DNA of 39,156 nt, from the IMG/VR virus record IMGVR_UViG_2695420487_000015, one strand, 5' to 3'. Source of the DNA: a virus (lineage: Duplodnaviria > Heunggongvirae > Uroviricota > Caudoviricetes). The translations under genes and the position numbers were made by a program. The notes beneath the pieces are model-generated. The model had not been told where the DNA came from. It ran no database searches and worked only from the letters and a program-made list of their open reading frames with translations. Shown in pieces: positions 11,628 to 15,223 of the stretch. Numbering within the stretch: the stretch's first letter is position 1; each line of letters starts with the position of its first letter.

Positions 11628-11975
11628 TCAACTCACAGGAATAGTCAGTGACAGGGTTTTGCCGGTGTCCCGGGCCTCGCCGGTCAGCTCAACAATCATC
11701 TGACCGTTAAACTGACGCTCGACCGTCAGCGAGCTGATGCTGATGCGCGGCTCCCACTTCAGCAGCGCCATATAACAGGCGCACATAATTTGCAGCCTCA
11801 GCGCGTCGGTCTGCGGCATATCAATCAGGGAGAACAGTAGCGAGCCATAATCGCGGCGCATCACGCGAGATCCAACCGGCGTTCGCAAAATATCGCCACA
11901 GCTCTGACGGATGTGATCGGCGTCAGTGATAGCTCGCCCTGTCTCGCGATTCATGCCGATATATCGGGTTGTCAT
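11628..11975 (-). CDS. W: Baseplate protein W
   Basis: 115 aa, the same length as P2 gpW. Confidence 0.85.
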   Translation of the reverse strand: MTTRYIGMNRETGRAITDADHIRQSCGDILRTPVGSRVMRRDYGSLLFSLIDMPQTDALRLQIMCACYMALLKWEPRISISSLTVERQFNGQMIVELTGEARDTGKTLSLTIPVS

Positions 11976-12613
11976 TTCGTCCCCTCCGTCCAGGCTCCAC
12001 CTCTTTGCACACCGCCGTGACCGTGGTCATCCACCACCACGCCATTTGATGAGAGTTTGCCGCCGGTGTGCTCGATATCGCCGCTCATCTTCCCGCCTTT
12101 GGTGACCTCGAGCGTGGCGGTCGTCAGTTTGTTGGTGCAGACAACTTCCGGGGTATCAAGGGTGATGCGGGTCTCGGCTTTCACCGTCACCAGCGGTACC
12201 GTCGCGATGATGGAATCCGACGCCGTAACGTCTGCGGTTTTAATACCGCTCACGGTCAGCGCGCTGGTCTCCGGCTCGTACTCGATAACAGCCCCGTCAG
12301 GAAAGGTGATGTGAAAAGCATCAGCCGACACCGACGGCGCGGGGTGTTCATCCGAAAAAATGCCGGGTAGCACAAAAGCCGTGTCCAGCTCACCACCGAC
12401 GGCCAGCAGTAAAACCTGCTCACCCACAGACGGAGCCCACCAGACACGTGAGCGACCGGCGCGCGCAGTCAGCCACTGAAGCCAGTCGGTAACAATGCCG
12501 CCAGTCTGGACGCGACAGCGCCCGTCATCGAGGCCAACCTCGACAATAACGCCGGTTCGGATCAGATTGCGAAGGAGGCGCTGAATGTCCTGAAGAGTGG
12601 ATTGTGTTTTCAT
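11972..12613 (-). CDS. V: Baseplate spike protein V
   Basis: 213 aa, ...GRCRVQTGG..DWLQWLT..AG.SR.WWAPSVGEQVL motif shared with P2 gpV. Confidence 0.85.
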   Translation of the reverse strand: MKTQSTLQDIQRLLRNLIRTGVIVEVGLDDGRCRVQTGGIVTDWLQWLTARAGRSRVWWAPSVGEQVLLLAVGGELDTAFVLPGIFSDEHPAPSVSADAFHITFPDGAVIEYEPETSALTVSGIKTADVTASDSIIATVPLVTVKAETRITLDTPEVVCTNKLTTATLEVTKGGKMSGDIEHTGGKLSSNGVVVDDHGHGGVQRGGAWTEGTK

Positions 12614-12660
12614 GCTGGGAAGGATGAAGGAAAAACACCTTCAATGTAATTGAGCGGTGT

Positions 12661-12678
12661 TGTATGCTTTTTAGTACA
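12661..12678. promoter_or_regulatory. TGT-N12-ACA dyad, candidate Ogr-type activator site in the divergent V / cargo-gene intergenic region
   Basis: Exact TGTatgctttttagtACA read in sequence; P2-family late promoters use this dyad (recollection). No equivalent exact dyad was found in the P-O or G-FI intergenic regions, so chance occurrence is possible. Confidence 0.3.
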
Positions 12679-12698
12679 ACTTCAAGAGGATAACCAAA

Positions 12699-13412
12699 TT
12701 GGATAACAAGGAATATCAGAGGCACTTTGGAATAATAACTGATGAATTACAAAAGCCTTCCGATAAACATTTGAGAGCATTTACGCAGGTTGCTGACATT
12801 AGAAAGTTTGAAATTGAGATGTATTGGAAAAGAGCTACGTATTTCTGGACCATTATTGCTATTACTTTTACTGGTTATTTTGCTTTAGCCTCCGCAAATA
12901 GCTTTCCGTTCAAAAATGCATTTTCTCTTTTGCTTTCCAGTATGGGATCCGTTTTTACTCTTTCATGGTTTTTGGTAAACAGAGGTAGCAAATACTGGCA
13001 GGAAAACTGGGAAAATCACTTAGACCTGATGGAAAACGGCATAACTGGGCCGCTCTATAAAACTGTACTCTCACGACCGTCAGTCGAAGCCAAAAAAAAC
13101 GCACCTCAACTTGCGAGTACTGATAAAGATTTTATCGACAAACATATCACCGGCCCCAAAAAAATATCAGCATCCAAAATTAACCAATTAGTTGCATTTT
13201 ACTTGCTTGGCATATGGTTAATATTAGTAATGACAACAATTACTAACATCTTAAAACTATCATTCTGGAGTGAATCCACGATAGAAGTAGTGTTGAGCGT
13301 GGGAGTTTTAATTTGGTCAGCAATAGCCACTAGTTTAATGTTTTGTAAGTCAGCCACCTATACAGGAATACAGACTTCAGAGGCAAGAAAACGCTCTTCG
13401 AATTTGTTATAA
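12699..13412 (+). CDS. Cargo gene: predicted four-helix membrane protein of unknown function
   Basis: AT-rich ORF with four hydrophobic segments. Track start is a TTG at 12699 preceded by AAGAGGA; the first ATG is at 12819. Lies between tail genes V and S. Confidence 0.6.
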   Translation: MDNKEYQRHFGIITDELQKPSDKHLRAFTQVADIRKFEIEMYWKRATYFWTIIAITFTGYFALASANSFPFKNAFSLLLSSMGSVFTLSWFLVNRGSKYWQENWENHLDLMENGITGPLYKTVLSRPSVEAKKNAPQLASTDKDFIDKHITGPKKISASKINQLVAFYLLGIWLILVMTTITNILKLSFWSESTIEVVLSVGVLIWSAIATSLMFCKSATYTGIQTSEARKRSSNLL

Positions 13413-13680
13413 CGTTGGTGATACACTAATAAATTCATTTAAAGCCCTCAGTTTTGGGGGCATGTAATCTCTACTTTCTCACGGAAAGAGAGTCCAGGAT
13501 GTACACCAGCGCTTGACGCGGAAAGCTAGTCACTGGTGGCAATACTGCGGGTGCGACATAGACTACGCAGGAAGCGCACAATATCCGGAAAGTAGGTTGT
13601 GTTTTCGTGTGGGAAAGGATGCCGCCTTAGAAGATCGGCGGCAATAGAGGTATGCAGTTCTATCTCTGGTAAAATTTTGT

Positions 13681-14757
13681 TTATTTTCGTTTGCCATAAG
13701 ACTGGGTTAGAATCGGAGTAATATCCTTAGTAAAGATATCTAGTCTTTCTTTTTCGGCTGAGAAAACATACTGTCTGGCTTGAATTACATTTTGCCTACT
13801 AATTAAGTTTGACACCTTTTCTGGTTTGCTTAGTGCAACTTTGGCACCCTTGAATATCAACGCTAAGCCCGGTGATATTGTAAAAATACATCCATTATCA
13901 AATGAAAAATCATTTTTTAAGAAAATAAAAGGAAAATCACTTGAAACAATGGCATATCCCTTAGGTGCTGAGTACAAATATACCCTACAACTACTCTCAT
14001 TGGTGATTGAGGAAAAAGGTAACGCCATAAATCTATGCATCTTTCTAAGTAAGTAAAACATTTCCCTCCGCTGTCCGCTGTCCGCATTAACTAGATACGT
14101 TCCTCCCTCCTTTAGTATAGATAACAAAGACCTCCATTCAGAACGTGGGATTATGCTCGCACCAGAAGGAATGAGATCCTTATTAGTATTCAGTACTTTC
14201 TTGATGGTGGTGTTTATATTTTTTAATTTTGGCATGGAGCCTTTATCAAAAAAATCATCCATACCTTTGTTTCTATAACATAAAAAACGGGCCATGAAAA
14301 TTGCCATGTTTTTTAAATCGTTGAAATCAATCTCATGCAAACCACTACATACTATCGAACGTGCGAATTTTTTTTCCGAAAGCTTGCCAAGCAACCAGTG
14401 TCTACGCACGAAATAATGACTACCTGAAGCATTTTTAAAATGCTCCTTTAATTTATAAAATTGCCACATTGCGTCTACAAAATCAGGGTAACAATCCTCT
14501 AGTATTTTAAAACTGTCCTCAATAAAGTTATCTCTATCCCCATCAATATAAAGAGTATGCCTTCGCTCTTGACCACAAATTTTTGTGGCATTAAGAAAAG
14601 TAATCCTTTCTTTTATTTGCTTTTTGGTGGCATCTGTTTTCACAAAACCATAAACAGTATCTTTCCCAGTCTTTGGGTCTTCAGATGTTATTTTAAAATG
14701 CCTGATATAAGTTGCAGGCAGATAATGCTGATAGTTTTGAAAAGTTCCCTTTGACAT
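13681..14757 (-). CDS. Cargo gene: DUF4238-like protein, candidate single-gene anti-phage defense protein
   Basis: AT-rich, 358 aa from the ATG at 14757, preceded by GGAGG and only 13 nt after the S stop. N-terminal HYLPATYIRHF resembles the DUF4238 signature as I recall it. Confidence 0.6.
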   Translation of the reverse strand: MSKGTFQNYQHYLPATYIRHFKITSEDPKTGKDTVYGFVKTDATKKQIKERITFLNATKICGQERRHTLYIDGDRDNFIEDSFKILEDCYPDFVDAMWQFYKLKEHFKNASGSHYFVRRHWLLGKLSEKKFARSIVCSGLHEIDFNDLKNMAIFMARFLCYRNKGMDDFFDKGSMPKLKNINTTIKKVLNTNKDLIPSGASIIPRSEWRSLLSILKEGGTYLVNADSGQRREMFYLLRKMHRFMALPFSSITNESSCRVYLYSAPKGYAIVSSDFPFIFLKNDFSFDNGCIFTISPGLALIFKGAKVALSKPEKVSNLISRQNVIQARQYVFSAEKERLDIFTKDITPILTQSYGKRK

Positions 14758-14770
14758 AGTAACCTCCAAT

Positions 14771-15223
14771 TTACCAAGTCATAATTTTTTTAATGATAAT
14801 ATATTCAACCTCTTCAGTTAAATCATTATTGAAACCAATGAGTGGTCGAGTGGGGTATTCAATCCGTCTGCTGTTAATGTTTGGGGCATCCTTTAACCCG
14901 TACTGATGCACCTTAGCCATACGCTGTACCTTGCCGGTAAATTCCACGACCGCCGCGTTATTCCCCGCCGTGGCTTTCATAAAGCGACTGGTACGGAGTT
15001 TGGCGAACATTTCCCGCTTAACCCGGCCTTTTTTGGCTTTTACCGGCTGGCGTTTTCGGGCGGCGTAAGGTGTCCCGTCCGGGGCTTTCTGCGTTTTAAT
15101 CCGGCGCTGTTGACGGGCTCGCAGGGTCTTCGCGATATCTGCGGCCATTCTGCGACGGGCGGCAGGTGACAGCGCCGCTATCAGCCCCGCGAGCTTATCG
15201 TCAAAGGGTTTAAAGTCATTCAT
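14771..15223 (-). CDS. S: Tail completion protein S
   Basis: 150 aa; position and size as in P2. Confidence 0.8.
   Translation of the reverse strand: MNDFKPFDDKLAGLIAALSPAARRRMAADIAKTLRARQQRRIKTQKAPDGTPYAARKRQPVKAKKGRVKREMFAKLRTSRFMKATAGNNAAVVEFTGKVQRMAKVHQYGLKDAPNINSRRIEYPTRPLIGFNNDLTEEVEYIIIKKIMTW

Follow-up and report, generated by a model that had tools for sequence, protein, structure and literature searches.

A probable recombination scar with a decayed start of gene V between two convergent cargo genes of a P2-like prophage

Two convergent genes in the cargo island of a P2-like prophage are separated by a short spacer that resembles neither of them in base composition, and the question it raises is whether this DNA is a gene, an RNA, or a trace of how the cargo came together. 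The prophage was analysed as a window of 39,156 nt (the whole stretch of DNA considered here), in which the spacer occupies exactly 268 bp (13413–13680). The initial annotation had offered three readings: a relic of a displaced gene, a small RNA, and a recombination scar left by the acquisition of the cargo. Relic and scar are supported by our analysis and the small RNA is not; the spacer is very probably a scar of recombination at the cargo site between S and V ('orf30') and, read on the minus strand, is made up of a relic of the late-promoter region PV, then a stub of gene V, then the 3′ flank of the RipA-family gene (Table 1).

The island (approximately 12650–14790) lies between the baseplate-spike gene V and the tail-completion gene S, and has a G+C content of 32–41%, as against 55–62% in the backbone on both sides. 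The S/V position corresponds to 'orf30' of P2, one of three regions known to bear morons in P2-like phages (PMC6823313, PMC3091744). Around the spacer, the annotation of E. coli strain 10 (NZ_CP048330.1) lists tail, baseplate, and lysis genes of P2 type, and RefSeq gives the first cargo gene the product name 'RipA family octameric membrane protein'. Five complete E. coli chromosomes share the spacer at 100% identity. The spacer is bounded by the stop codon of the RipA/8xMP gene (TAA, 13410–13412) and by that of the DUF4238 gene (TAA, seen as TTA at 13681–13683), which starts 13 nt after gene S. PF14022 was also found in homologs of the window's DUF4238 protein, and a DUF4238 system of one gene, taken from another P2 hotspot, protects E. 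coli against T7 (PMC9122126). Neither cargo protein has a match in PADLOC or NCBIfam, and the literature search on RipA/8xMP returned nothing usable. The DUF4238 subfamily of the window has just 12 cluster representatives in a search of 5.8 billion proteins; several P2-like phages carry it at the S/V site, and it is also present on IncFII plasmids of Escherichia albertii, where it adjoins a PemK/MazE pair.

Table 1. Coordinates of the features in and around the spacer
Feature	Positions	Strand	Description
Baseplate-spike gene V (live)	11972–12613	minus	Pfam Phage_base_V, Phage_spike, Apex
Live PV region	12614–12698	minus	before functional gene V; dyad TGT-N12-ACA at 12661–12678
Cargo gene 1, RipA-family octameric membrane protein (8xMP), 237 aa	12699–13412	plus	Pfam PF24838, E = 3.6e-36
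RipA 3′ flank	13413–13466	plus	border with V stub approximate
Second hairpin, GCCCTCA-GTTT-TGGGGGC	13444–13461	plus	missed in the initial annotation
Gene V pseudogene stub	13467–13608	minus	firm at 13538–13608; probable, with indels, to about 13470
Relic S/V junction copy (PV late-promoter region)	13609–13680	minus	directly downstream of DUF4238
−10-like motif, CATCCTTTCCC	13611–13621	minus	in relic PV region
Hairpin of the initial annotation, TGCCGCC-10-nt loop-GGCGGCA	13620–13643 (arms 13620–13626, 13637–13643)	minus	perfect 7-bp stem
Degraded activator half-site, TTTTAC for TTGTGC	within 13651–13674	minus	window relic reads TTTTACCAGAGATAGAACTGCATA
Cargo gene 2, DUF4238 protein, 358 aa	13681–14757 (alternative call to 14769)	minus	Pfam PF14022, E = 2.2e-6
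Tail-completion gene S	14771–15223	minus	Pfam Phage_tail_S

The description of the spacer as non-coding and less AT-rich than its flanks is borne out. Its open reading frames are of 36–44 aa and were rejected as genes, since none is kept in the orthologous spacers (Pantoea, Klebsiella, one metagenome contig, and Serratia). Its G+C content is 0.47, compared with 0.371 for the RipA gene, 0.352 for the DUF4238 gene, and 0.55–0.62 for the phage backbone. BLASTN against phages, which had been suggested as a check, left the spacer without a match among 50,697 phage records, where tblastn of both cargo proteins likewise found nothing; blastn against the window itself, by contrast, matched gene V.

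That match aligns 13560–13621 with 12564–12626 (48 of 63 positions identical, E = 1e-6, same orientation), a target made up of the first 16 codons of live gene V and the region just upstream. An nhmmer profile of V alone, built from 73 distinct V 5′ ends, hit the window at 13538–13606 (E = 4.3e-5), with a collinear second piece at 13473–13537 that is non-significant alone (E = 0.056). The firm segment (13538–13608) corresponds to V nt 3–72, approximately codons 1–24; the inner part (13467–13537) can be aligned to V in two incompatible ways and has that weak score, so the junction can be placed only approximately. A second profile, made from three intact DUF4238-to-V junctions (L027, L032, and L035) and spanning the DUF4238 stop, the intergenic region, and the first 210 nt of V, recovers the live V of the window (E = 9e-53) and, on the minus strand, the spacer at 13560–13668 (E = 3e-14). 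A better-preserved ortholog is found in a cryptic prophage of Serratia marcescens (L021/L022), where the DUF4238 protein is 77% identical: the junction profile there covers 225 nt (L021 4589–4813, E = 4e-35) comprising the intergenic region and V codons 1–53, the V-only profile reaches E = 2.8e-26, and tblastn with GpV aligns aa 14–54 at 63% identity (E = 8e-10).

The coding capacity of the stub has been lost. The start codon has changed from ATG to ACG (13606–13608), and a 1-nt frameshift and then a stop follow; the conceptual translation, TKTQPTF/PDIVRFLRSLCRTRSIATSD*, still resembles GpV MKTQSTLQDIQRLLRNLIRTGVIVEV. In Serratia the stub is interrupted by a stop at codon 8. At most about 53–67 of the 213 codons of V are represented, and with a G+C content of 0.507 the stub is intermediate between the live V 5′ end (0.593) and the cargo (0.35–0.37), as is expected from decay of a fragment toward the composition of the AT-rich cargo. 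The displaced gene suspected in the initial annotation can thus be named: it is gene V, of which about 70–140 nt of decayed 5′ stub remain beside a copy of the V promoter region. On sequence grounds, most of the spacer is what remains, in decayed form, of the V 5′ end together with its promoter region.

The promoter-region copy shares with the Ogr-dependent late promoter PV of P2 a hairpin, the sequence CATCCTTYCCC, and the spacing to the (former) start codon, and differs from it in having a mutated TGT and a dead downstream gene. The hairpin TTGCCGCC..GGCGGCAT and CCTTYCCC are present at 13611–13644 with the correct spacing to the former V start codon, and the −35-like TTGCCG, the 17-nt spacing, and the −10-like CATCCT are all intact. 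The site of the Ogr/Delta activator, for which TGT-N12-ACA is the P2 late-promoter consensus (PMC3931495), is perfect in the live PV and broken in the relic; the TGT of the half-site is lost in the window and in the Pantoea and Klebsiella copies, which have TTTTAC or TATATC instead of TTGTGC. The hairpin had been described as imperfect and without a U-tract; it exists and lacks the U-tract, although its stem of 7 bp is perfect. Folded as minus-strand RNA it has an energy of −14.0 kcal/mol, and the pattern TGCCGCC-N10-GGCGGCA occurs once in the window (0.01 expected from shuffles). The relic PV region is 0.736 identical to its Serratia counterpart, compared with 0.48 at fourfold sites (p = 4e-4), the hairpin-bearing part being constrained; a retained role as a terminator fits this conservation, and some other function may also be compatible with it.

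The hairpin is not peculiar to the spacer. The pattern TTGCCGCC-N6-10-GGCGGCATCMTY was found in at least 120 viral contigs, and in about 76 of 80 examined matches it ends 5–6 nt before the start codon of V. At most of these loci the hairpin begins 39–50 nt after the stop codon of gene S, an empty hotspot, and at the rest 0.7–2.2 kb of cargo lies between gene S and the hairpin. A search with GpV, independent of the hairpin, gave an unselected set of 65 distinct V upstream sequences, most of which (not all) have the TGT-N12-ACA consensus as a dyad GTTGT...ACAAAAC, then a hairpin, then CATCCTTYCCC and ATG. In an alignment of 56 V upstream sequences the stem is 88.7% paired (slid-partner controls, 27–65%), the inner pairs covary (e.g., GC:32, CG:7, AU:5), and the covariation score was reached by none of 500 shuffles. 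Almost every wobble pair in the unselected alignment has its U in the 5′ arm, indicating a structure that forms in RNA transcribed from S toward V. A hairpin of this kind is absent downstream of DUF4238 on plasmids (L023) and in an integrase island (L033). The GCCGCC hairpin was considered as a terminator belonging to DUF4238 itself and rejected, being absent from these non-phage loci and present before V in empty hotspots; it therefore belongs to the phage backbone and not to the cargo. The hairpin of the spacer is the relic version of a family-wide element. In P2-like phages (V upstream regions L157–L236; window 12611–12680) the PV dyad is centred about 56 nt upstream of the V start codon; these regions have no Shine-Dalgarno sequence, and the −10-like CATCCT ends 6–7 nt before the A of the ATG. 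P2 late promoters have their dyad at −55; if that of PV sits there too, the V mRNA would be leaderless or nearly so. The literature search on PV geometry returned nothing usable.

At the opposite end of the spacer, the 3′ flank of RipA contains a second stem-loop, which folds at −12.1 kcal/mol as plus-strand RNA and at −7.9 kcal/mol as minus-strand RNA. It is kept in 5 of 5 orthologous spacers, with one compensatory change (C-G to U-A) and one change from U.G to C-G; the flank as a whole is 0.63 identical to Serratia, against 0.48 at fourfold sites (p = 0.06). This stem-loop is probably a 3′-end or terminator hairpin of the RipA transcript. A possible derivation of it from V codons 58–67, suggested by MAFFT, was rejected as unsupported; nhmmer places that part of V elsewhere, weakly.

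Like Rho-independent terminators between convergent genes, the spacer has two G+C-rich stem-loops, one per strand, 30–40 nt past the stop codons, and compensatory or wobble changes accompany their conservation between lineages. They differ from such terminators in that no U-tract follows the stems, the tails being AUCCUUUCCC (minus strand) and AUGUAAUCUC (plus strand), and in that a consensus scan of the spacer called no terminator-like site, nor any promoter; the hairpin at 13620–13643 has no T-run after it on either strand. Without a U-tract, neither is a textbook intrinsic terminator. The hairpin of the relic probably still ends the S-DUF4238 transcript, and we infer that the two stem-loops serve as 3′ ends of the convergent transcripts, with the V stub as inert filler between them.

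The stub evolves at the rate of synonymous sites. Its identity between the window and the Pantoea copy (L019) is 0.754, with 0.73–0.75 at fourfold sites (Fisher p = 0.80); for the Serratia copy (L021) the values are 0.547 and 0.48 (Fisher p = 0.30), and several indels separate the lineages. The stub therefore looks neutral, and it combines the marks of a pseudogene: collinear similarity to V, truncation with loss of coding capacity, and a neutral rate. The same rate speaks against the small RNA of the initial annotation, as does the lack of any promoter-like site. Rfam gave no match to the spacer even at E ≤ 10, and at a permissive threshold over 12400–15000 it gave chance-level matches, all outside the spacer. 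Single-sequence folding yields z of about −2.3 on both strands, which says little. A covariance check on orthologs had also been suggested at the outset: in a five-sequence consensus fold (RNAalifold) the hairpins at the two ends of the spacer are the only ones robustly retained, Serratia lacks intact central stems, and covariation contributes just −2.1 of −49.9 kcal/mol. Within the V stub an imperfect hairpin (13495–13547, CACCAG..CTGGTG core) shows one double change, C-G to T-A, in Pantoea and Klebsiella and is not kept in Serratia; the double change is probably due to chance.

How a start of gene V came to lie between the two cargo genes is indicated by the gene orders of other P2-like phages. 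Three independent contigs have DUF4238 without RipA upstream of an intact V, in the order S-DUF4238-V with a DUF4238-to-V gap of 67–71 nt (L032 and L035/L036) or in the order S-DUF4062-DUF4238-67 nt-V (L027/L028). The converse arrangement, S-RipA-V with RipA on the opposite strand, is found in L010. The DUF4238-linked PV regions of L027 and L032 align with the relic PV (0.69–0.76), the live PV aligns only with the sequence between RipA and V in L010 (78% identity), and no alignment of relic with live PV is possible. There are thus two PV alleles, each beside its own cargo, which argues that two cargo-bearing phages were joined and against a local tandem duplication. Both parental arrangements and the presence of two PV alleles give substance to the suggestion that the spacer is a recombination scar from cargo acquisition. 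In L027/L028 (2061–3392) a gene for a 443-aa DUF4062 protein is followed by DUF4238 on the same strand, another two-gene stack at the S/V site.

The joining may be pictured as follows. One ancestor would have had the order S - DUF4238 - PV promoter/hairpin - V, and the other, also a P2-like phage, S - RipA (opposite strand) - its own PV allele - V. One illegitimate junction, between approximately codons 50–67 of V and the 3′ flank of RipA, together with one homologous exchange in the shared backbone, would have yielded a product that kept both cargo genes and, between them, the old PV region and about the first 50 codons of the old V. The V stub would later have lost its start codon and frame and drifted neutrally from a G+C content of about 59% toward that of the AT-rich cargo, a drift that would explain the intermediate composition of the spacer. 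In the product the late minus-strand transcript of S-DUF4238 would be closed by the old PV hairpin, and the plus-strand RipA transcript by the hairpin at 13444–13461. The joining event is old: fourfold sites of the E. coli and Serratia copies are only 0.47–0.50 identical. The analysis turned up no close single-cargo parent; among phages with an intact S-DUF4238-V order, the DUF4238 proteins of the nearest are only 51–57% identical. Scans with the DUF4238 protein of viral contigs, and with the single protein or a 12-sequence alignment of species-representative genomes, gave no relatives, so the 'parent' phages are known from exact-protein look-ups of DUF4238 homologs only.

The RipA-spacer-DUF4238 block is also found on Pantoea and Klebsiella plasmids and in other contexts (L019, L020, and L029–L031). 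In L019 and L020 the block ends in stubs of the live V (aa 1–57) and of S (aa 107–150), so these are excised pieces of the same composite prophage and not independent occurrences. The plasmids are CP020945.2 of Pantoea ananatis (L019 3010–5490) and AP022009.1 of Klebsiella quasipneumoniae (L020), the latter with transposase genes of the IS3, IS30, and IS481 families near the block. In the Serratia marcescens copy RipA is split over three frames (L021 4882–5595, L022 3955–4667) and DUF4238 is intact; the prophage is heavily degraded, with a portal gene adjoining S and V truncated.

Independent second copies of PV and the first V codons occur in three further phage contigs (L129, L183, and L198), and such PV-V′ seams recur at the S/V site. 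In L183 (368–432) and L198 (1240–1305) an apparently intact copy stands right after S and before 1.7–2.5 kb of other cargo; in L129 (1344–1422) a second copy, apparently intact, lies approximately 200 nt upstream of the live one. The cargo in these contigs may be driven by the duplicated late promoter.

The duplicate of PV and the first V codons in L129 looks almost identical to its live counterpart and lends some weight to an origin without two parents, in which PV-V′ was duplicated in tandem and RipA was then inserted between the copies. The coding part of the stub is 0.70–0.72 identical to the live V of the same genome, about as similar as to other V genes. We nevertheless regard a tandem duplication as very unlikely here, given that relic and live PV cannot be aligned and each resembles the PV that accompanies its own cargo in other phages; the hairpins differ as well (GCCGCC..GGCGGC in the relic, TGAAGG..CCTTCA at 12625–12643 in the live region). 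That the relic PV is conserved beyond fourfold sites, with its −35-like and −10-like elements and their spacing preserved, would also suit a relic that still fires: late minus-strand RNA would then run through the stub and antisense to RipA, which would silence a membrane defence protein, potentially a suicidal one, during phage replication. In a mirror version, RipA mRNA reading through would carry the stub, which keeps 76% complementarity over 63 nt to the start region of V, and the stub would regulate that region in antisense. The lost activator TGT, the neutral rate and many indels of the stub that would be transcribed, and the empty promoter scan all count against an active relic, and the conserved hairpin is more simply explained as the end of the S-DUF4238 transcript; the wobble pairs of the family, too, favour RNA read from upstream. 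The two versions are, even taken jointly, highly improbable, and about equally improbable is the wider proposal that the duplicated PV is a live cargo-side promoter or terminator module, copied repeatedly when cargo stacks (as also in L129, L183, and L198) and giving late antisense RNA across RipA in this prophage.

The movement of the RipA-spacer-DUF4238 block as a unit into plasmids and other contexts might instead indicate a three-part defence system, with the spacer contributing an independent structured small RNA or small protein. Apart from this movement, the folding z scores and the single compensatory change in the hairpin at 13495–13547 (in the clade of the window and Pantoea) are in its favour. 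The plasmid copies, however, with their V and S stubs, are pieces of one prophage and not separate assemblies; DUF4238 occurs without RipA and without a long spacer in several phages and plasmids, and RipA also occurs without DUF4238. With no Rfam match, no conserved open reading frame, a neutral rate, little covariation, and central stems that do not survive in Serratia, such a system is extremely unlikely. The two-phage scar remains the preferred reading.

The locus belongs to a known class. As in the S/V ('orf30') moron region of P2, variable AT-rich cargo lies between S and V (PMC6823313, PMC3091744) and is flanked by conserved backbone, the scar being a truncated copy of a neighbouring conserved gene. 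The present case differs in that two cargo genes of separate origin stand side by side with the scar between them, which thus records the order of assembly. The literature that was searched, in searches aimed at other questions, makes no mention of a V′ stub at the S/V site. As a gene remnant where mosaic segments meet at a known moron site, the spacer is ordinary; no new gene, RNA, or mechanism is indicated, and its significance does not extend beyond its value as a record of cargo stacking. It is a small, readable record of defence cargo piling up in a phage hotspot: two single-gene cargos from different P2-like phages have been joined, with the truncated start of the adjacent essential gene and its promoter region as the seam. 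The recurrence of such seams suggests that the PV/V 5′ region is a repeatedly used junction for the exchange of cargo at the S/V site, and a junction of this kind could help to delimit cargo cassettes automatically.
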